Shown here piece after piece: positions 1 to 8,237 of a DNA stretch of 8,237 nucleotides. The DNA comes from a virus, in UHGV virus genome UHGV-0217139; one strand, given 5' to 3'. Position 1 is the first letter of the stretch, and the number at the start of each line of letters is the position of its first letter. Position numbers and translations under genes: made by a program. The notes beneath the pieces are model-generated. The model searched no databases. It saw only the letters and a program-made list of their open reading frames with translations, and had not been told where the DNA came from.

Positions 1-126
1 GGCATAACCTGAATCTGAGGCAGCACCTGGCACGGCTGGGACGGAAGTCGCTGTCGTTTTCAAAATCGGTGGAGCTGCATGACAAAGTCATCGGGCATTA
101 TCTGAACATAAAACACTATCAATAAG

Positions 127-615
127 TTGGAGTCATTACCGGAAATCTCAACATTTTCAACTGTAAGAAACTTGTCCCATAGTCCACATAAGCATGTCCT
201 CCCTTTTGGTTTTGTTCAATCTCCAATACTTGCAACCCTCTGCTTAGATAAAAGTTATTTTGGTAGCTTACTACGCCGATTGAACAAACATCATGATCTC
301 AAGCTAAGTGTGTTTATGGATGATGTGATCATCTCGTCAAACGATTTGGCCCAATTACAAGCGGCTTACGACGAAGCACTAGTGGCAATGCGCAAATCTG
401 GTTATCAAGCCAACATGAGTAAAACTCAGGCACCATCGTCAAAGATTAGCGTGTTTAATTTAACTTTGAGTAAGGGAGTTATGAAAGTCACATCTCAGAA
501 AATGAGTGACTTCCTGATTGATTTCTATTCAAGCAATTATGAGCCGCACAGAATAGGGGTCAAAAACTACGTCGAAGCTGTTAATCCAGGGCAAGCGAAA
601 CTCTTTAAGTTGTAA
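127..615 (+). CDS. Reverse-transcriptase-like palm-domain fragment (motifs B to E only), N-terminally truncated; possibly a pseudogene
   Basis: Translation contains LPFGFVQSPILATL (RT motif B-like, LPQG...SP.L), then ~20 aa later SVFMDDVIIS (motif C, YxDD-like with FMDD), then KSGYQANMSKTQ and FNLTLSKG (motif D/E-like G..N..KT and FLG). No motif A is present; the frame is closed by stops at 103-105 and 109-111 and the first possible start is TTG at 127 with no convincing RBS. Composition is visibly AT-richer than the P4 core. Confidence 0.5.
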   Translation: MESLPEISTFSTVRNLSHSPHKHVLPFGFVQSPILATLCLDKSYFGSLLRRLNKHHDLKLSVFMDDVIISSNDLAQLQAAYDEALVAMRKSGYQANMSKTQAPSSKISVFNLTLSKGVMKVTSQKMSDFLIDFYSSNYEPHRIGVKNYVEAVNPGQAKLFKL

Positions 616-880
616 TTGCGATCGCATGTAGTAGCAACTGGGCTTGACTGAATGCCTGCCGCCATTTTGCCGCCACTACCAAAGAAAAAAGGGCTACGCT
701 TTCACGTAACCCCTTGATTTATTTGGGGGCTGGCGGAGTTTGAATAAATAATGTATTGCTTTGATTTTTAATGATTTTGTTTAATTCAGTTTTTGTGCGT
801 ATACCTAATCGTATACCAATGGCTGTAAGTTAATGTGAAATGAAAGCGCATTTTTACTTGGATTGATGCTATATCGTACA

Positions 881-1187
881 GGAAAAAAATTTTTTTTCGA
901 AAGAACTGTTCACACTGTTCACCTTTCTTTTTTCTCCTTTTATTTCAGAGTGATAGGTGGTGAATAATGGGTGAAGGGTGAACATTCGATTCTTCACCTC
1001 CGGCATTCTGCCGGTGTGACTCATACCGGTGATTAATCCCCCATACTGAAATCACACAGGGAGAAAAAAAAGTTTTTTTTGATTTGATTGTTCACACTGT
1101 TCACCTTTCGTTTTTCTCTTTTAATTTCAGTGTGATAACGGGTGAATATACGGTGAAGGGTGAACAGTGGATTGTTCACCTTCGGGG
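881..1187. repeat. crr: P4-type cis replication region (crr): two ~125-bp direct repeats (881-1003 and 1061-1187) with type I iteron octamers
   Basis: The two units are highly similar and start 180 bp apart. Each begins with an A/T tract (A7T8 / A8GT8) and carries TGTTCACAC-TGTTCACC (907-923; 1089-1105), inverted GGTGAA-type copies (956-983; 1140-1166) and a further TTCTTCACC/TGTTCACC (990-998; 1173-1180). As I recall, P4 crr is two 120-bp repeats separated by 60 bp that bind alpha protein via TGTTCACC iterons. Position just 3' of alpha fits. Confidence 0.75.
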
Positions 1188-1195
1188 GATGTCGG

Positions 1196-1223
1196 GATAA
1201 AAAAAGACCGGCAGATGCCGGTC
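1196..1223 (-). terminator. Rho-independent terminator of the alpha operon
   Basis: Inverted repeat GACCGGCA/TGCCGGTC at 1206-1223 (GC-rich stem, short loop) followed on the minus strand by a run of 7 U (plus-strand A run 1199-1205), 8 nt downstream of the alpha stop codon. Confidence 0.7.
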
Positions 1224-1230
1224 AGGTGGG

Positions 1231-3564
1231 TCAGGCTGTTGTAGGGTCGTCACATTTTGGCAGCCAGTCGCCGTAGCTTTCCTCTTTCAGCGTCAGGTTG
1301 GTCTGTATCCCCTGTTTGGTATGGCGCTTCTCGTAATTCAGCCCGTATTCCTTCAGCATCACCGGCAGCCCCAGCCCGAACATTTTCAGACTGAGTACAT
1401 TCCGGTAGCCGTTTGCCTCCATGTAGGCCAGATAGGCGTGATAGAGGTATTTACGGTAATTACGCGGGATGATACTGGCGTTCCCCATATACATGCCGCT
1501 GGTCTGCGGCAGGGTTTCCAGATAGCCGATAAAATCAAACGTCGGGTCGGCATCCCGTTTGATGTTCAGCGCCTCGTCTGAGTTCTGCTGGGACTGAAGC
1601 AGTGACCGGGCGAGCATCGGGTCGCTGAACTTCTGCATCAGGTGACGCACGATGACCGCCAGCTCGCGGGTGATTTTGTCCTTAAGCTGCGGGTCGCGCT
1701 CCTGCGGGGCTATCTGTTCCGGGAAGTGAATAATCACCCGCCGGCGTGACACGCCGCCGCTGCGGTCGGTGAAGCGCATCGGGTTATTGTTCACGGCCAG
1801 AATCACCGCCGGGATATGCGTGGAGTACGCATCCCGGTATTTCGGATCCACGGACACCGCATCGCCGCCGGTGATGGCCTTGAGTCCGGCACCGTCGCCG
1901 CTCCATTTTTCCTGGTCCGGCAGGCGTATCAGTGAGAAGCCAGTTAACGCGGCACGTTCACGCGGGGATTCCAGCGTCTCAATGGTGGCCGACGTGGCGT
2001 TATCCTCCCCGGCCAGCAGGGTGGCTATTTCGGCCATGATACTTTTGCCGCTGCCGCCGGGACCGGTCACCTCCAGAAAGAGCTGCCAGTCGTAGCGGTT
2101 TGCCAGCACCATAAACAGTGCGGCCAGAATCACGTCGCGTTTTTCCGCACGGCCACCGGCGGCACGGTCAAGCCAGCGCCAGAACGCGGGGGCGTGGGTT
2201 TCCAGCGTTTCCCCTTCCACCGGCGGGGTGAAATCCACATCGCACAGGGTACGCATCCAGTGTGACGGACTGTGCGGGTGGAACGTGCCGTTCTGCGTGT
2301 CGAGCACGCCGTTACGAAAGCCAATCAGGCAGCGGGAGGGGGCTTCCTGCTGCGGAATAATCAGCTTCAGGGTGTCCACCACGGAGGCCACCTTCCCGGA
2401 GGAGAACGGCGCGCGCAGCCGCTGAAACAGCCCGGCCACATCCCGGGCAAAGTCCTGTGGTGGCAGCACCTTCCAGACACCATTTTCATAACGGGACAGA
2501 AGCTGGCCGTTGGCATCGACCGCGAGCGCCTCGCCGTAATGCTCATAGATACGCATGGCCTTTTCGCTGGTACTCATGGCGGAAAACTCCGCTTCGCTCA
2601 TGGTGTCGAACGGGCTTTCAGCCGGTGGCCGGATGGCATCATAAATGGCCTTACGGGTGGCTTCCCCGCCGTACTGCGTGAAGGCATCATTCCAGTCACC
2701 GAAGACCGGCGGCAGGGCAACAACACCTTCACACGCATCTGCGGCTGCGGCGGCTTTTTTCTGGCCGTCACCGCTGAGGTCACGGTCAGCAGCAAGGACT
2801 ATCTGACAGGCCGGATGCTTCTGCCGGGCAAGGCTGGCCAGAGAAAGGAGGTTCACGGAAGAAAGCGCCACCATCACCGTTTCACCGGTCAGGTGATGTA
2901 CGGTAAGTGCGGTCGCGTATCCCTCCGCTATCCACAGACGTTTTCCGGCCTGATTCTGTCCTTCAAGGATGTGACAGGTGCCCCTGACCTGTCCGCCTTT
3001 CAGGGTGCGCTTACGGCCGTCAGCACTGATTAACTGAAGGTTAACCAGTGCGCCGCTGTCGTCATACAGTGGCACCACAAGGTCACCGGCGCGCCAGCTC
3101 ACGCCACCGGCTCTGTGTGTGCCGGTCAGCATCCGGCATTCCCGGCCGGGAAAGCCCTTGCGGGTCAGGTAGGCGTTACCGGTTCCGGGACGGGTTTTTG
3201 CCATCAGGGTTTGTGCCAGTGCGGCGGCGTTCTTCCGGGCAGCGTCTGTTTCAGCAACGGCGGCGGCCGTCACTGCCGGGTCAGCCGGGGGCAGACTGCC
3301 GGTCACGGCAGCCACCTTTGCGGCCGCGTCGGACGGGGAGACACCAAACACCTTTTCAACCAGTTTCAGGCCGTCACCGGCACCACACTGATTGCAGTAC
3401 CAGGTGCCGCGCCCCTCCCTGTCATCAAAACGGAAGCGGTCACTCCCGCCACAGACCGGACAGGGCTGATGACGGTTCTTCAGCACCTGAATCCCCAGCG
3501 CCGGGAGAATACGCGGCCAGTGGCCGAGCGCATGGCTGACGGTGGCGGTTACGTTCATTTTCAT
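1231..3564 (-). CDS. alpha: P4 alpha-type bifunctional DNA primase / helicase (replication initiator)
   Basis: 777-aa ORF. N-terminal zinc-binding primase motif CPVCGGSDRFRFDD...WYCNQCG and Walker A GPGGSGKS in the C-terminal half. RBS AAGGAGA 8 nt upstream of ATG. Length equals P4 alpha as I recall it (777 aa). Followed by crr iterons. Confidence 0.9.
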   Translation of the reverse strand: MKMNVTATVSHALGHWPRILPALGIQVLKNRHQPCPVCGGSDRFRFDDREGRGTWYCNQCGAGDGLKLVEKVFGVSPSDAAAKVAAVTGSLPPADPAVTAAAVAETDAARKNAAALAQTLMAKTRPGTGNAYLTRKGFPGRECRMLTGTHRAGGVSWRAGDLVVPLYDDSGALVNLQLISADGRKRTLKGGQVRGTCHILEGQNQAGKRLWIAEGYATALTVHHLTGETVMVALSSVNLLSLASLARQKHPACQIVLAADRDLSGDGQKKAAAAADACEGVVALPPVFGDWNDAFTQYGGEATRKAIYDAIRPPAESPFDTMSEAEFSAMSTSEKAMRIYEHYGEALAVDANGQLLSRYENGVWKVLPPQDFARDVAGLFQRLRAPFSSGKVASVVDTLKLIIPQQEAPSRCLIGFRNGVLDTQNGTFHPHSPSHWMRTLCDVDFTPPVEGETLETHAPAFWRWLDRAAGGRAEKRDVILAALFMVLANRYDWQLFLEVTGPGGSGKSIMAEIATLLAGEDNATSATIETLESPRERAALTGFSLIRLPDQEKWSGDGAGLKAITGGDAVSVDPKYRDAYSTHIPAVILAVNNNPMRFTDRSGGVSRRRVIIHFPEQIAPQERDPQLKDKITRELAVIVRHLMQKFSDPMLARSLLQSQQNSDEALNIKRDADPTFDFIGYLETLPQTSGMYMGNASIIPRNYRKYLYHAYLAYMEANGYRNVLSLKMFGLGLPVMLKEYGLNYEKRHTKQGIQTNLTLKEESYGDWLPKCDDPTTA

Positions 3565-3578
3565 GGTGTTGTTCTCCT

Positions 3579-3899
3579 TCAGTGCAGTACCGGCGCTTTT
3601 ATGTGACGGGCACAGAGTTCATCCATCACAACCAGCCCGAGAAAGGACAGCGACGGCGCGGCCTTCAGGGGGCCGGATTCCATTAAATCTTCCAGCAGGG
3701 CACAGGCTATCTGACGCCCTTTTTCCTCACCGTGCTGGCGCAGATAAAAGCCCTCCAGCTCAGCGGCGATGGCCGCCTCCAGTGATTCAAGGGTGAGATG
3801 CGGGTAGCGGTGCTGACGTTCGCACACGGTCAGCCAGGCACAGGCGACAGCACGACGGTAAAGGGCTGCGCGTAAGACGGGCGGTAAGGGTGTTTTCAT
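3579..3899 (-). CDS. P4 orf106-like small protein of the left operon (function unknown)
   Basis: 106-aa ORF directly upstream of alpha on the same strand; RBS GGGAGGA 6 nt before ATG; stop 15 nt before alpha start. Length and position match P4 orf106 as recalled. Confidence 0.6.
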
Positions 3900-4034
3900 T
3901 TGCTTTCCTCCCTGTGACAGATGACTGCATTCCGTGCCGGTTGCATTAACTGATAAGGCATATCTGCGTCTCCTGAAGACGTGCGTATCCCTGCGCGAAT
4001 ACGCACATTTAATTTTTCGGGTGTCGTTTTTTAA

Positions 4035-4490
4035 TTACAGATAATTGCGGTAACTGTTATCCGGGGTGATTTCCGGGTCAGGCTCCGTGCGGGGAATTTC
4101 CCGCCATTCCCGCGCCACCGGTGCCGCCCGGCTGACCGGAACAGGGTCCTGCGGGTAAATATCCAGATATTTCTCCCGCCATTTCTGTAATTCCGGGTCT
4201 CCGGCCATTTCTTTCAGTACCGCATGCCGGTTTACGGGGCTGCGTTTAAACAGGTCAGGACGGTCACAGGTAAATTCCCGCAGAAAACGCCCCAGCGGGA
4301 TGTCTGTGGTGCGCCCGTCGGCGAGGATACGCACAAGGATACTGAATTTACGGCGGTACGGGTTCCAGACAATGTCCGGGCAGCGGTACGGCATTTCCCA
4401 CGGAATACCGTCTTCCAGAATGCCGACCACGGCCACATCGGGAAAACCGGCAGAACGGTAAATCTCACCGGGCTGGGGAAAATCAAACAT
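4035..4490 (-). CDS. P4 orf151-like protein (function unknown)
   Basis: 151-aa ORF; its ATG overlaps the epsilon stop by 8 nt (operon coupling). Length and position match P4 orf151 as recalled. Confidence 0.6.
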   Translation of the reverse strand: MFDFPQPGEIYRSAGFPDVAVVGILEDGIPWEMPYRCPDIVWNPYRRKFSILVRILADGRTTDIPLGRFLREFTCDRPDLFKRSPVNRHAVLKEMAGDPELQKWREKYLDIYPQDPVPVSRAAPVAREWREIPRTEPDPEITPDNSYRNYL

Positions 4491-4770
4491 GCGTCCTGTC
4501 TCCCCGGTCTTTCTGCTGGGCGAGAAAATCGCGGCACAGGCCTTTGGCTTTCAGCTCATTCAGCACAAAATCAATATCTTCATTCAGGTAGCTGAAAATA
4601 TGCGGAATGTAGAGCTGATGCAGGCCGGAGAGTTCACGGTGAATCAAATCACCCCCAACAAACTGGGATACGGCGCTGGCGCGGTTGAGCTTATGGTAAG
4701 CCTCAATGCTGAGGTGTTCACAGGCGTCATGACGCGCTGAGACGGTCTGAGGGGCTTTTTTATTACGCAC
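4483..4770 (-). CDS. epsilon: P4 epsilon-like protein (helper-prophage derepression), GTG start
   Basis: The track gives a 175-aa ORF, but the in-frame GTG at 4770 has a GGAGG RBS 6 nt upstream and yields exactly 95 aa, the size I recall for P4 epsilon. The upstream in-frame part overlaps kil/eta in another frame. Confidence 0.55.
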
Positions 4771-4960
4771 GGGACACCTCCACCACCGGCAGACGGGCAG
4801 CAAGGGAGAGCACATAGTCACGGACAAAGGAACGGCGGGCACTGCGTTCATCACCGGCGACGGTGCGAAGCATACAGATACGGGGATGACGGTCTGCGCG
4901 ACGGACAGCCGCAAACACAAAGACAAATTCAGGGTGTGAGGGGGTAAGGGTTGTAGCCAT
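4763..4960 (-). CDS. kil: P4 kil-like 65-aa protein (C-terminal in-frame part of eta)
   Basis: ATG at 4960 preceded by a strong RBS AAGGAGG (7-nt spacer); 65 codons to stop at 4763-4765; overlaps the epsilon start by 8 nt. P4 kil is described as a 65-aa product forming the terminal part of the eta ORF. Confidence 0.6.
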
Positions 4961-5338
4961 AAGGCAGCCTCCTTCGAGTAGCAAATAACTGCTATCGCCG
5001 GAGTTCTCACGCTCGATGGCGATAGCCCAGACGGGGGTGAGAATACCGGCCTCGAAGAATACCGGCCAGCCCGGAGGCTGCCCCGCCTGAGCTACCATTG
5101 ACTCAGTGGCATAACATGCGATTGCGAACAGGATCATACCTGCACGGCAAACCACACGCCACACCATAATCTGGCGCTCTGTGGCGTTGATTGCGACACA
5201 AAAAAAGACGCATGGCGCGTCATATGTCGCCTTCGAGTTACACGGGTTCTCACGCCCGGCTGCCGATTTTGCGGCAACGGAAAGACTATATCCGCAAATG
5301 CCGGTCTGAGGATGAGTCTCCTGTGTCAGGGCTGGCAC
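4763..5338 (-). CDS. eta: P4 eta-like ORF (long form containing kil in frame)
   Basis: 191-aa ORF in the same frame as and ending at the same stop as kil; P4 eta is recalled as ~197-199 aa, starting upstream of the early promoter. The start codon is uncertain. Confidence 0.4.
4990..5300 (-). promoter_or_regulatory. P4-type immunity / early-left leader region (candidate P_LE, seqA/seqB/seqC-like motifs, CI RNA locus); boundaries unresolved
   Basis: Exact 10-mer GTTCTCACGC occurs twice (5003-5012 and 5246-5255), with a partly complementary GGGGGTGAGAATACCGG at 5033-5049. Hairpin GCTATCGCC(4991-4999)/GGCGATAGC(5018-5026) encloses the first copy in its loop. An 11-bp direct repeat GAATACCGGCC lies at 5041-5051 and 5057-5067. 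A -10-like TATAGT sits on the minus strand at 5285-5290. The pattern fits the P4 CI-RNA antisense immunity arrangement, but I cannot place the RNA ends. Confidence 0.35.
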
Positions 5339-5339
5339 A
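5322..5339 (+). promoter_or_regulatory. Delta/Ogr-type activator site (TGT-N12-ACA) at about -55 of the sid late promoter
   Basis: TGTgtcagggctggcACA; the dyad centre is ~82 bp upstream of the sid ATG, consistent with a transcription start near 5385 and a ~27-nt leader. P2/P4 late promoters carry TGT-N12-ACA centred near -55. Confidence 0.55.
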
Positions 5340-5359
5340 TCTGCAATGCGTCGTGTTGT

Positions 5360-5377
5360 TGTCCGGTGTACGTCACA
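5360..5377 (+). promoter_or_regulatory. Second TGT-N12-ACA dyad, ~38 bp downstream of the first (possible promoter-proximal Delta site)
   Basis: TGTccggtgtacgtcACA; centre ~17 bp upstream of the start predicted from the first dyad. I recall P4 Psid having a second Delta site near -18, but this is from memory. Confidence 0.4.
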
Positions 5378-5411
5378 ATTTTCTTAACCTGAAGTGACGA
5401 GGAGCCGGAAA

Positions 5412-6146
5412 ATGTCTGACAACACCATCCCTGAATATCTGCAACCCGCACTGGCACAACTGGAAAAGGCCAGAGCCGCCCACCTTGAGAACGCCCGACT
5501 GATGGATGAGACCGTCACGGCCATTGAACGGGCAGAGCAGGAAAAAAATGCGCTGGCGCAGGCCGACGGAAATGACGCTGATGACTGGCGCACAGCCTTT
5601 CGTGCAGCCGGTGGTGTCCTGAGCGACGAGCTGAAACAGCGCCACATTGAGCGCGTGGCACGCCGGGAGCTGGTACAGGAATATGACAATCTGGCCGTGG
5701 TGCTGAATTTTGAACGTGAACGCCTGAAAGGGGCGTGTGACAGCACGGCCACCGCCTACCGGAAGGCACATCATCACCTTCTGAGTCTGTATGCAGAGCA
5801 TGAGCTGGAACACGCCCTGAATGAAACCTGTGAGGCGCTTGTCCGGGCAATGCATCTGAGCATTCTGGTACAGGAAAATCCGCTCGCCAACACCACCGGC
5901 CATCAGGGCTACGTCGCACCCGATAAGGCTGTCATGCAGCAGGTGAAATCATCGCTGGAACAGAAAATTAAACAGATGCAAATCAGCCTCAGCGGCGAGC
6001 CGGTTCTCCGGCTGACCGGACTGTCAGCGGCAACACTTCCGCACATGGATTATGAGGTGGCAGGCACACCGGCACAGCGCAAGGTGTGGCAGGACAAAAT
6101 AGACCAGCAGGGAGCAGAGCTTAAGGCCAGAGGACTGCTGTCATGA
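5412..6146 (+). CDS. sid: P4 Sid external scaffold (capsid size determination) protein
   Basis: 244 aa from ATG 5412 with RBS GAGGAG upstream (the track ORF begins at an upstream GTG, giving 250 aa). N-terminus MSDNTIPEYLQPALAQLEKARAAHLENARLMDETV matches P4 Sid as recalled; coiled-coil-like composition; stop overlaps the delta start (ATGA). Confidence 0.85.
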   Translation: MSDNTIPEYLQPALAQLEKARAAHLENARLMDETVTAIERAEQEKNALAQADGNDADDWRTAFRAAGGVLSDELKQRHIERVARRELVQEYDNLAVVLNFERERLKGACDSTATAYRKAHHHLLSLYAEHELEHALNETCEALVRAMHLSILVQENPLANTTGHQGYVAPDKAVMQQVKSSLEQKIKQMQISLSGEPVLRLTGLSAATLPHMDYEVAGTPAQRKVWQDKIDQQGAELKARGLLS

Positions 6147-6643
6147 TTTACTGCCCGTCGTGTGGACATGTTGCTCACACCCGCCGCGCACATTTCATGG
6201 ACGATGGCACCAAGATAATGATTGCACAGTGCCGGAATATTTATTGCTCTGCGACATTTGAAGCGAGTGAAAGCTTTTTCTCTGACAGTAAAGATTCAGG
6301 AATGGAATACATTTCAGGCAAACAGAGATACCGCGATTCACTGACGTCAGCCTCCGGCAGTATGAAACGCCCGAAAAGAATGCTTGTTACCGGATATTGT
6401 TGTCGGAGATGTAAAGGCCTTGCACTGTCAAGAACATCGCGGCGTCTGTCTCAGGAAGTCACCGAGCGTTTTTATGTGTGCACGGATCCGGGCTGTGGTC
6501 TGGTGTTTAAAACGCTTCAGACCATCAACCGCTTCATTGTCCGCCCGGTCACACCGGACGAACTGGCAGAACGCCTGCATGAAAAACAGGAACTGCCGCC
6601 AGTACGGTTAAAAACACAATCATATTCGCTGCGTCTGGAATGA
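6143..6643 (+). CDS. delta: P4 Delta late-gene transcriptional activator (tandem Ogr-like zinc finger)
   Basis: 166 aa; two Cys4 zinc-finger modules (CPSCGH...CRNIYC and CRRCKG...CTDPGCG); translationally coupled to sid; same length as P4 delta as recalled. Confidence 0.85.
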   Translation: MIYCPSCGHVAHTRRAHFMDDGTKIMIAQCRNIYCSATFEASESFFSDSKDSGMEYISGKQRYRDSLTSASGSMKRPKRMLVTGYCCRRCKGLALSRTSRRLSQEVTERFYVCTDPGCGLVFKTLQTINRFIVRPVTPDELAERLHEKQELPPVRLKTQSYSLRLE

Positions 6644-6716
6644 GGGCTGCCGGTTAACACCGGCCGTCGCCGCACACCGTATTTTTATTCTTCAGCATGA
6701 TGAGAAAGAGATAACG

Positions 6717-7289
6717 ATGGAAAGCACAGCCTTACAGCAGGCCTTTGACACCTGTCAGAATAACAAAGCAGCATGGCTGCAACGCAAAAATGAGCTGGCA
6801 GCGGCCGAACAGGAATACCTGCGGCTTCTGTCAGGAGAAGGCAGAAACGTCAGTCGCCTGGACGAATTACGCAATATTATCGAAGTCAGAAAATGGCAGG
6901 TGAATCAGGCCGCCGGTCGTTATATTCGTTCGCATGAAGCCGTTCAGCACATCAGCATCCGCGACCGGCTGAATGATTTTATGCAGCAGCACGGCACAGT
7001 ACTGGCGGCCGCACTGGCACCGGAGCTGATGGGCTACAGTGAACTGACGGCCATTGCCCGAAACTGTGCCATACAGCGTGCCACAGATGCCCTGCGTGAA
7101 GCCCTTCTGTCCTGGCTTGCGAAGGGGGAAAAAATTAATTATTCCGCACAGGATAGCGACATTTTAACGACCATCGGATTCAGGCCTGACGCGGCTTCGG
7201 TGGATGACTGCCGTGAAAAATTCACCCCTGCGCAGAACATGATTTTTTCGCGTAAAAGTGCGCAACTGGCATCACGTCAGTCTGTGTAA
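6717..7289 (+). CDS. psu: P4 Psu polarity-suppression (Rho antagonist) / capsid decoration protein
   Basis: 190 aa; RBS AAGAG 6 nt upstream; last gene of the sid-delta-psu operon and directly followed by cos, as in P4; length matches P4 Psu as recalled. Confidence 0.85.
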   Translation: MESTALQQAFDTCQNNKAAWLQRKNELAAAEQEYLRLLSGEGRNVSRLDELRNIIEVRKWQVNQAAGRYIRSHEAVQHISIRDRLNDFMQQHGTVLAAALAPELMGYSELTAIARNCAIQRATDALREALLSWLAKGEKINYSAQDSDILTTIGFRPDAASVDDCREKFTPAQNMIFSRKSAQLASRQSV

Positions 7290-7453
7290 AATTCCCCGAA
7301 AACCCGCTTGTTTTTACTGAAAAAAGCCATGCATCGATAAGGTGCATGACTTTGCATGCGTTTTCCCGCCCCATTATCAACAAAACACGCCATTCCCGGC
7401 GCGGCCTGAGCGTGTCAGTGCAACTGCATTAAAACCGCCCTGCAAAGCGGGCG

Positions 7454-7472
7454 GGCGAGGCGGGGAAAGCAC
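7454..7472. other. cos: cos site: 19-nt P2/P4-type cohesive-end sequence
   Basis: Exact GGCGAGGCGGGGAAAGCAC, the 19-nt 5' cohesive end sequence of P2 and P4 as I recall it, located ~165 bp downstream of psu where P4 cos lies. Confidence 0.75.
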
Positions 7473-7780
7473 TGCGCGCAAATGTTGATGTGTTCAATTT
7501 TTTCAAAGTCTGAGAGCGCAATTGAGTTTGCTCGCTTCATCTACGACAATAAGTTAGAGTAGTGATTAGAAAGGGGAATGTTTAATATTATTGAGTTAAA
7601 GTTATTTTTGTGTTTTTGGATGACTCTATTGATGTGTTTATGATAGTGTTATTTTTACGGAGTGGATGGAGGATTAATTTCATTTAATGCATTAACATAA
7701 TGCATGTGTTTTAATGTGGCTGTTAAATATTGTGGCGGTTTTTTAGGCTATAAAAACATTTGTGTGCTTCTTATTTTTTT

Positions 7781-8237
7781 TTATTTATATTTTTGTGGGG
7801 TAATTTCAACATATGAAGAAGCGAACCATTCTACAGGTTTTTTGTTTTTCAATTCTTCTGTGTCAAAATTATCATCTGGTGTTGACCTAAATGTAATATA
7901 ATAAACGCCTGGCTTATTTAATCCAACAATATAGCTAAGGGTTTTTTCTGCTCCTATTAAAACATGTGTCTTTGATAATGATTTACTTTTTGATTCTGGA
8001 TAGTGTTTTTTATCTCTCAAAGATGTATAGAGATTTGGTGTAAAAGATTGAGATTGTTCAACTTTATCGCCATTTGCGCTTACTTTGTACACAGTTAAAG
8101 CTCCTTTGGATGTGTCAAAGGATAATGGTCGTTTGCCGTTATTTTTTATGGTTACATTAATAATCATTCCTAGCTGTGTTTTTAACGGGATAACATTAAT
8201 AGCAATACTGCTAGAGTCAGTGCCCTTAATTTGCTCT
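7781..8237 (-). CDS. 3' part of a cargo gene of unknown function in the post-cos variable region; 5' end lies beyond the window
   Basis: The minus-strand frame stays open from the window edge (8236) to the TAA at 7781-7783, giving 152 codons; the M at 8167 in the ORF track is internal. Very AT-rich codon usage unlike the P4 core. Sequence (…VYYITFRSTPDDNFDTEELKNKKPVEWFASSYVEITPQKYK) matches no family I recognise. Confidence 0.55.
   Translation of the reverse strand, partial: EQIKGTDSSSIAINVIPLKTQLGMIINVTIKNNGKRPLSFDTSKGALTVYKVSANGDKVEQSQSFTPNLYTSLRDKKHYPESKSKSLSKTHVLIGAEKTLSYIVGLNKPGVYYITFRSTPDDNFDTEELKNKKPVEWFASSYVEITPQKYK

Follow-up and report, generated by a model that had tools for sequence, protein, structure and literature searches.

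We analysed the virus genome sequence UHGV-0217139, a stretch of 8,237 nucleotides referred to here as the window, and in particular its right end, where a minus-strand gene runs off the sequence. The window is a nearly complete P4-like satellite and its right end falls inside the cargo. The visible gene, which we call B (WP_001493296.1, 217 amino acids), is just the second of two genes in an operon, the membrane half, and the more informative gene, A (WP_234007003.1, 367 amino acids), lies outside the window. We found the intact cargo in two complete E. coli genomes, Ec1120 (locus L001) and S1-INA-02-B (locus L014), with 99.6-99.7% DNA identity to the window. In both genomes the gene order is psu, cos, B, A, the integrase gene (int) and the ssrA transfer-messenger RNA (tmRNA) gene, and the satellite is integrated at ssrA. 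All three genes lie on the minus strand and are read in the order int, A, B toward cos, with 43 bp between the end of int and the start of A and 4 bp between the end of A and the start of B; at the L001 locus the cargo consists of A and B only. An earlier note on this DNA, made from the window alone, had assigned the gene to the hotspot between psu/cos and int of a P4-like satellite and proposed to extend the sequence rightward. The gene order in the two genomes confirms that assignment, and the extension yielded the intact gene B, its partner A, the integrase and ssrA. The features of the cargo end are the following:

7454-7472, plus strand: cohesive-end (cos) 19-mer of P2/P4, GGCGAGGCGGGGAAAGCAC, with 0 mismatches and 0 chance matches expected
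7473-7483, no strand: last backbone bases after cos, with the junction between backbone and cargo at about 7478-7489
7484-7780, from the cos junction to the B stop codon: AT-rich non-coding spacer with a G+C content of 0.30, presumably the 3' untranslated region of the operon
7781-8237, minus strand: 3' part of gene B, with the stop codon at 7781-7783 and residues 67-217 at 7784-8236
7802-8209, minus strand: immunoglobulin (Ig)-like beta-sandwich of B (residues 76-211, possibly of BsuPI/E-set type), probably periplasmic and wholly contained in the window
L001 15966-17069, minus strand: gene A, directly upstream of B

The sharp change of base composition that had been noticed just after cos is real, since the G+C content goes from 0.544 (1-7472) to 0.318 (7473-8237) past the exact 19-mer, with 0.304 in the spacer (7482-7780). 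In a profile of 200-nt segments it falls within one step, from 0.525 at 7300-7499 to 0.31-0.28 over 7500-7799. The full cargo (L001 15010-17112) has a G+C content of 0.328, against 0.527 for psu. Compared by eye with P4 (NC_001609), the window agrees to about 7483. When the whole window was searched by megablast against 5426 complete E. coli genomes, 753 of them proved to hold 80% or more of it. Among the genomes listed, ten have the backbone without this cargo, and there the match breaks off at 7478-7489; it runs through to 8237 in no more than two genomes of the set. Because the match stops at these positions in cargo-less genomes, the cargo junction can be placed a few bases past cos, in agreement with the description of the hotspot by Rousset et al. 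(2022; PMC9122126). The content of this slot is thus swapped among satellites, as had been supposed: the backbone is common to 753 genomes and the cargo is found in two, with the break next to cos.

The coding signal in the window belongs to B. The minus frame from 8236 is open for 151 codons (the 152 counted earlier include the stop, 7781-8236) and the remaining two minus frames are full of stops; an open stretch of 151 amino acids was reached in 2 of 2000 dinucleotide-preserving shuffles of 7473-8237 (mean 69.9, standard deviation 15.9). Translation of the window fragment gives residues 67-217 of the full B from L001, and the two coding differences between the window and Ec1120 are both synonymous. 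The window ends before the first 66 codons, which encode the cytoplasmic N-terminus, the membrane helix and the greater part of the coiled-coil stalk; beyond it, B is intact. A word-indexed search retrieved 31 homologues of B, while 429 representatives of clusters came from an exhaustive profile search (E <= 0.001). With few exceptions, the 150 of these that were listed have 170-290 amino acids and match most of the profile; given this number and this near-full coverage, B is a member of a broad orphan family. The homologues span 25-100% identity and many genera. Between E. coli and the Pantoea P4-like element, B shows a rate of nonsynonymous substitution (dN) of 0.14 with saturated synonymous substitution (dS), giving a dN/dS of about 0.03; for A the dN is 0.21, with dS too saturated for an estimate. 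This result indicates purifying selection, therefore B and A are real, constrained genes.

In line with the unrecognised family of the earlier note, B has no significant model in Pfam, NCBIfam, PADLOC or PHROG, and a search of PDB sequences gave one insignificant match only. Neither the phage records of INPHARED nor the plasmids of PLSDB encode B. A scan of genome collections for B relatives yielded a single locus, in Pantoea, and the contexts of B described below were obtained by exact-protein look-ups. Nor does the cargo resemble the gop-beta-cII genes that occupy the same slot between cos and int in P4, as had been suspected: that identity was rejected with a best BLASTP E-value of 0.09 over 12 residues and no profile match at E <= 10.

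A model of B made with AlphaFold2 from an alignment of 23 homologues shows a long N-terminal helix (residues 12-70) of low confidence, followed by the beta-sandwich of residues 76-211, which is confidently predicted (predicted local distance difference test, pLDDT, about 85-93 over most of the domain). The helix contains a hydrophobic segment at 18-40 (Kyte-Doolittle 1.99), compatible with a single membrane helix, and the fold of the sandwich resembles extracellular adhesion or scaffold domains, e.g. RbmA and FnIII. Family members with one transmembrane helix (1-TM) have a short N-terminus of net positive charge, and those with two (2-TM) have a positive loop between the helices and an extreme N-terminus without K or R; by the positive-inside rule, both charge patterns would place the beta-sandwich outside the cytoplasm. 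On the basis of sequence and model, B is probably a bitopic inner-membrane protein with a conserved short cytoplasmic N-terminus, a membrane helix, a coiled-coil stalk and an outward Ig-like domain. Two homologues deviate from this layout. That of Shewanella sp. SG44-2 is split in two overlapping open reading frames (ORFs) of 91 and 156 amino acids (L003 2605-3340; L004 2167-2902). The split is seen in the assembly at NCBI as well as in one that Logan made from a sequencing run; the gene may have become a pseudogene, or the frameshift may be peculiar to the strain or programmed. The homologue in the metagenome contig L013 (4776-5681) has 301 amino acids and its coiled-coil segment is matched two or three times by the profile, which indicates that the stalk from the membrane helix to the Ig domain was lengthened by duplication.

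Gene A encodes a cytoplasmic protein. Precomputed matches assign Pfam PF28530 (DUF8426) to its cluster at 100% identity and to its homologues; this accession is newer than the Pfam copy that we searched. The N-domain, from residue 1 to about 170, is a PUA-like (YTH/EVE-type) pocket domain, and residues 10-176 match positions 3-155 of the 324 of the PADLOC candidate PDC-S02 (PDLC04806) with an E-value of 2.7e-18. In PADLOC, Pfam, NCBIfam and PHROG, A matches only PDC-S02/REase_II, through the N-domain, and phrog_10226, of unknown function; the local Pfam gave no Mrr_cat, HNH or other nuclease model, no metallophosphatase and no HAD. An alignment of 20 members of the A family, down to 22% identity, has 16 invariant residues. 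Ten of them are in the PUA-like domain (W13, R16, G18, H37, F85, D93, G106, S110, R138 and W143) and the others in the C-domain (H178, W179, I196 and the S-P-G motif S264, P265 and G266). The C-domain, at about 180-335, gave weak ferredoxin-like fold matches only and contains a conserved hydrophobic helix at 279-297 (Kyte-Doolittle 1.73). A has no relative among PDB sequences, while in BFVD we found one full-length structural homologue, an uncharacterised protein of an uncultured myovirus (E 1.4e-16).

The relatives of A delimit its two halves. The Salmonella protein EHB39536.1, found via the N-domain of A, matches PDC-S02 end to end (E 1.4e-82) and has Mrr_cat at residues 225-338 (Pfam E 1.7e-23), whereas the A profile aligns only to its residues 31-176. 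Because the similarity ends at the putative reader domain, PDC-S02 can be described as a reader plus an Mrr nuclease, and A as the same reader plus a different, non-nuclease C-domain. In Streptococcus, proteins of 356-357 amino acids from a prophage lysogeny module and from a satellite (L015 2971-4044, L016 2968-4038) share the first ~210 residues of A (profile E 3e-31). They continue with a QSPGD motif and a longer glycine-rich hydrophobic stretch (GLLIFALIAGGGATFFGGKISIFGI), and have no B-like neighbour; this stretch without a B partner hints that the C-domain of A may itself be membrane-active.

Two further observations concern the ends of A. At the C-terminus (L001 15966-16040) there is a conserved, disordered acidic tail (...EPDDFEGI, ...DDDVEPDDFEGI; pLDDT < 50), whose "FP...acidic...G-I/M/L" pattern is retained in distant A subfamilies and which looks like a short docking motif. 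At the other end, the older RefSeq model of A, WP_001493294 (264 amino acids), starts at a GTG corresponding to residue 104 and loses the PUA-like domain; many database entries of 222-264 amino acids look like the same truncated start call.

In all 13 contexts that were fetched, A, the DUF8426 gene, directly precedes B, at B identities down to 25%; as a rule the two genes are separated, or overlap, by just a few bases. Profile searches confirmed the A and B assignments in the loci to which they were applied. A-B is thus an obligate pair carried in mobile-element hotspots, and its contexts are:

E. coli, two genomes (L001, L014): P4-like satellite
Pantoea: P4-like element
V. parahaemolyticus (L005-L007): int-AlpA-VapE islands next to rpoD
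Photobacterium: A-B locus
Shewanella: A-B locus with B split by a frameshift
Metagenome contig: pair beside serine recombinases
Three P2-like prophages: pair abutting the portal gene, with GmrSD or an AAA_13 ATPase as neighbours
Three short metagenome contigs: B of 25-27% identity, one of them in the 2-TM form, with overlaps of 1-4 bp

The V. parahaemolyticus island has two integrase-type genes, two AlpA genes and a VapE-like primase in a satellite-like layout, and the same site occurs in further assemblies (15 similar places beyond those listed). In the P2-like prophages, the hotspot holds an AAA_13 ATPase of 742 amino acids or a GmrSD type IV restriction enzyme (L008 4926-7154; L011 3500-5218). 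As the A-B pair shares this portal-proximal hotspot with them, it stacks with other defence genes.

Until now, two surveys list this cargo. It is the P4-hotspot system #61, "BsuPI", of Rousset et al. (2022; PMC9122126, Table S1B), with 14 occurrences, a psu-int location and the remarks "1 TM in protein 2" and "Likely a nuclease". Protein 2 of that entry has exactly the sequence of B. Protein 1 begins at residue 104 of A and, owing to the old start-codon call, lacks the PUA-like domain. Table S6 of the same work contains a homologous pair, "hypothetical + BsuPI (1TM)", in an Aliivibrio wodanis hotspot, and the string GGCGAGGCGGGGAAAGCAC is present in the P4 and P4-like sequences of its Table S2A (PMC9122126). 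The other survey is DefensePredictor, whose Table S10 gives WP_234007003.1 as a "Predicted novel defense gene" with a log-odds of 6.5 and no remote-homology annotation (PMC13092281). Literature searches on PF28530, DUF8426, BsuPI together with phage, and three accession numbers gave nothing beyond these two catalogues. The cargo is therefore a catalogued candidate, cloned in neither survey, with a mechanism that we infer. The claim that this was the likely place for an undescribed system holds in part, as the cargo has been catalogued as system #61, and its partner gene A is listed by DefensePredictor and has the Pfam family DUF8426.

What is established here comprises the position of the cargo and its intact operon of two genes, the folds, the strict linkage of A with B, the residence in hotspots, the lack of nuclease motifs and the lack of homology with gop-beta-cII. 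We consider that the A-B pair is probably an anti-phage defence system, as suggested by its location in the hotspot, the linkage of A and B, their presence in several kinds of mobile-element hotspot and the purifying selection on both genes. The listing as system #61 and the log-odds of A in DefensePredictor add an independent prediction. Our best explanation as a whole, an anti-phage module in which a sensor of modified nucleotides is coupled to a membrane partner, stands at about even chances, and we would give the same weight, neither for nor against, to the pocket domain of A being a sensor of a modified base or nucleotide. In such a module, the role of A would be to recognise infection by a modified base or nucleotide. 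The signal could be phage nucleic acid that is methylated or hypermodified, or else a methylated nucleotide in free form, e.g. N6-methyl-deoxyadenosine monophosphate (m6dAMP), released when the phage breaks down the host genome. Together with B, A would next work at the membrane to halt the infection, and the cell would probably be sacrificed in the process (abortive infection). The logic of sensor and effector is supported by the presence of the same N-domain ahead of Mrr_cat in PDC-S02, which represents a swap of effector, and the mechanism by the precedent of Metis, where a PUA-like pocket recognises m6dAMP and type II has a membrane effector. That the output is a membrane event involving B, and possibly the hydrophobic helix of A, ending in abortive infection, is suggested here tentatively. 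A more specific version, a shade less likely again, would be a nuclease-free abortive-infection system resembling type IV restriction, in which A, as a YTH/EVE-type reader, detects a modified nucleotide found only during infection (m6dAMP or a hypermodified phage base) and acts at the inner membrane via its own hydrophobic helix and B.

Several points weigh against this interpretation. System #61 is outside the 19 P4-hotspot systems that Rousset et al. cloned (PMC9122126), and WP_234007003.1 is missing from the tested and validated tables of DefensePredictor (PMC13092281). PADLOC has no model for B and gives only a partial match for A, and the Pfam, fold and PDB sequence searches with A found no recognisable activity in its C-domain. 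The beta-sandwich of B is a generic fold that says little on function, and one helix with an outward Ig domain is atypical for a pore-forming effector and suits a sensor or an exclusion protein equally. Finally, residence in a hotspot is an association and not a proof.

Among the alternatives, the one that survives best, and which is still unlikely, is that the pair is not anti-phage at all and works as an addiction (toxin-antitoxin-like) module, or as a factor for the life cycle of the satellite or the fitness of the host that rides in the cargo slot. In this sense, only 7 of the 19 P4-hotspot cargoes cloned by Rousset et al. (2022) protected against a panel of eight phages, and gop-beta of P4 behaves like a toxin-antitoxin pair (PMC9122126). 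However, the pair is found in three unrelated kinds of mobile-element hotspot and next to known defence genes such as GmrSD, A is scored highly by DefensePredictor, a language-model predictor trained on defence genes, and its reader domain is otherwise found in restriction-type proteins.

Exclusion at the level of the envelope is a less probable alternative, in which the periplasmic Ig-like domain of B would block phage adsorption or DNA injection and A would regulate or stabilise B from the cytoplasm. B is membrane-anchored with a conserved domain that is predicted to face outward and whose fold is akin to those of RbmA and FnIII, and exclusion genes are often carried by satellites and prophages. 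Yet this explanation has no place for a strictly conserved cytoplasmic reader in which the best-conserved residues are in a domain of the nucleotide-pocket type. In addition, the relatives of A in Firmicute phages and satellites occur without any B, which suggests that A carries the core activity.

We regard it as very unlikely that A is a modification-dependent (type IV-like) restriction nuclease with B as an accessory, in the sense of the remark "Likely a nuclease" in the catalogue. The likeness to such enzymes is confined to the reader domain, both in the PDC-S02 profile and in the Salmonella enzyme, no nuclease model of Pfam falls on A, and A lacks a relative of known structure in PDB sequence searches. 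The invariant residues of its C-domain do not compose a PD-(D/E)xK, HNH or GIY-YIG set, and the representative sequence behind that remark lacks the first 103 residues of A. The nuclease reading was thus rejected on motif conservation and limited profile coverage. That the frame at 7781-8236 is a chance ORF or a decayed remnant, as could be thought of a gene cut by the window end in AT-rich, horizontally acquired DNA and matched by no family model, has next to no chance of being true and is already refuted by the shuffles, the intact copies in two genomes, the homologues, the dN/dS and the confidently predicted structure.

Regarding known systems, no validated system of PADLOC v2.0.0 matches the cargo, as B falls in no family and A only in PDC-S02/REase_II. 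Rousset's #61 is the same cargo, given as a catalogue line whose "nuclease" remark is not borne out by the conserved residues of A. PDC-S02 has a homologous N-terminal PUA-like reader, but it is a single gene with a C-terminal Mrr_cat of the PD-(D/E)xK type, whereas A has the DUF8426 C-domain instead and a membrane partner. A was not accepted as PDC-S02 proper, since only the first half of the profile is matched and A has no Mrr_cat. Type IV restriction enzymes with readers of the PUA superfamily include VcaM4I, the Staphylothermus McrB with its YTH-like N-domain and the Mrr family; unlike them, A has no nuclease or NTPase domain after the reader.

The closest precedent for the proposed logic is Metis. 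In type I, m6dAMP is bound in a PUA-like pocket, and this activates the effector joined to it (bioRxiv 10.1101/2025.11.05.686725). Type I is composed of MisA-MisB and type II of MisC-MisB (Osterman et al., 2025, preprint), and a PUA-Cal-HAD arrangement appears in a 2026 preprint. Type II has a membrane effector and is also a P4-hotspot cargo, the "Hydrolase + 3TM" of Rousset (10.1101/2025.11.05.686725). The A-B pair may share the logic of a PUA-like pocket sensor with an effector, which in type II is a membrane one; A has a domain of PUA-like fold. In contrast to Metis, the A-B cargo has neither the calcineurin-like phosphoesterase (MisA) nor the HAD phosphatase (MisB), and MisC of type II has three membrane helices whereas B has one helix and an Ig domain. 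Membership in Metis was ruled out, as MisA, MisB and MisC are all absent from the cargo. Kiwa (KwaA/KwaB), RT-nitrilase + 1TM and Hydrolase + 3TM are likewise operons of a soluble and a membrane protein in the P4 hotspot; however, there is no sequence relationship with them (PADLOC, which contains Kiwa models, gave nothing for B), and B is mostly an outward-facing Ig-like domain.

The rest of the window is satellite backbone, with these features:

1231-3564, minus strand: alpha primase
5015-5102, minus strand: C4 antisense RNA (Rfam)
5201-5278, minus strand: isrK (Rfam)
5239-5291, minus strand: c4 a1/b1 target (Rfam)
5394-7289: sid, delta and psu, with psu at 6717-7289
7435-7454, minus strand: G+C-rich hairpin followed by a T-run, CCGCCCGCTTTGCAGGGCGG TTTTAATGCA, a putative terminator for cargo transcripts heading to psu, just inside the backbone

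The stretch 5015-5291 is the P4 immunity RNA region (C4/CI), so that the satellite backbone looks functional. The hairpin is a consensus match only, found at L001 14982-14963 and mapped to the window by an offset of 7528. In the AT-rich spacer there is a perfect 8-bp palindrome, ATGCATTA-aca-TAATGCAT, at 7687-7705, the sole inverted repeat in 7400-7800 at the settings used, which could be a weak terminator or a protein-binding site. Rfam has no family within the spacer, and promoter- or terminator-like sites in the cargo, scanned on L001 including the stretch homologous to the spacer, were in no excess over shuffles. At the other side, many E. coli genomes match the whole window only from position 662 or 723 onward, which puts the left end of the satellite at about that place. 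The first ~660 bases are chromosomal flank, and ypjA/AIDA-like autotransporter fragments are the features at the left end (1-723). The whole window gave 75,402 matching places, which suggests that some stretch of it is repeated across many genomes.

What is new here is a reader domain of restriction-type candidates that is coupled to a novel C-domain and to a membrane partner with a predicted periplasmic Ig domain. The corrected N-terminus of A exposes the reader domain missed by the 2022 catalogue entry, and turns an anonymous cargo into a hypothesis with named residues. Even if the pair had no phage phenotype, it would still be a clean example of cargo turnover at the cos junction of P4. If it is a working defence system, it would provide a second class of effector for a reader domain that otherwise feeds an Mrr nuclease, as in PDC-S02, and would carry beyond Metis the recent idea of modified nucleotides as danger signals that are sensed by PUA-like pockets. 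In the nuclease-free version described above, it would constitute a pairing of sensor and effector unseen in validated defence systems, spread over P4 satellites, P2 prophages and Vibrio islands. As a defence system, it would also give a function to a widespread orphan family, that of the 429 B cluster representatives and DUF8426.

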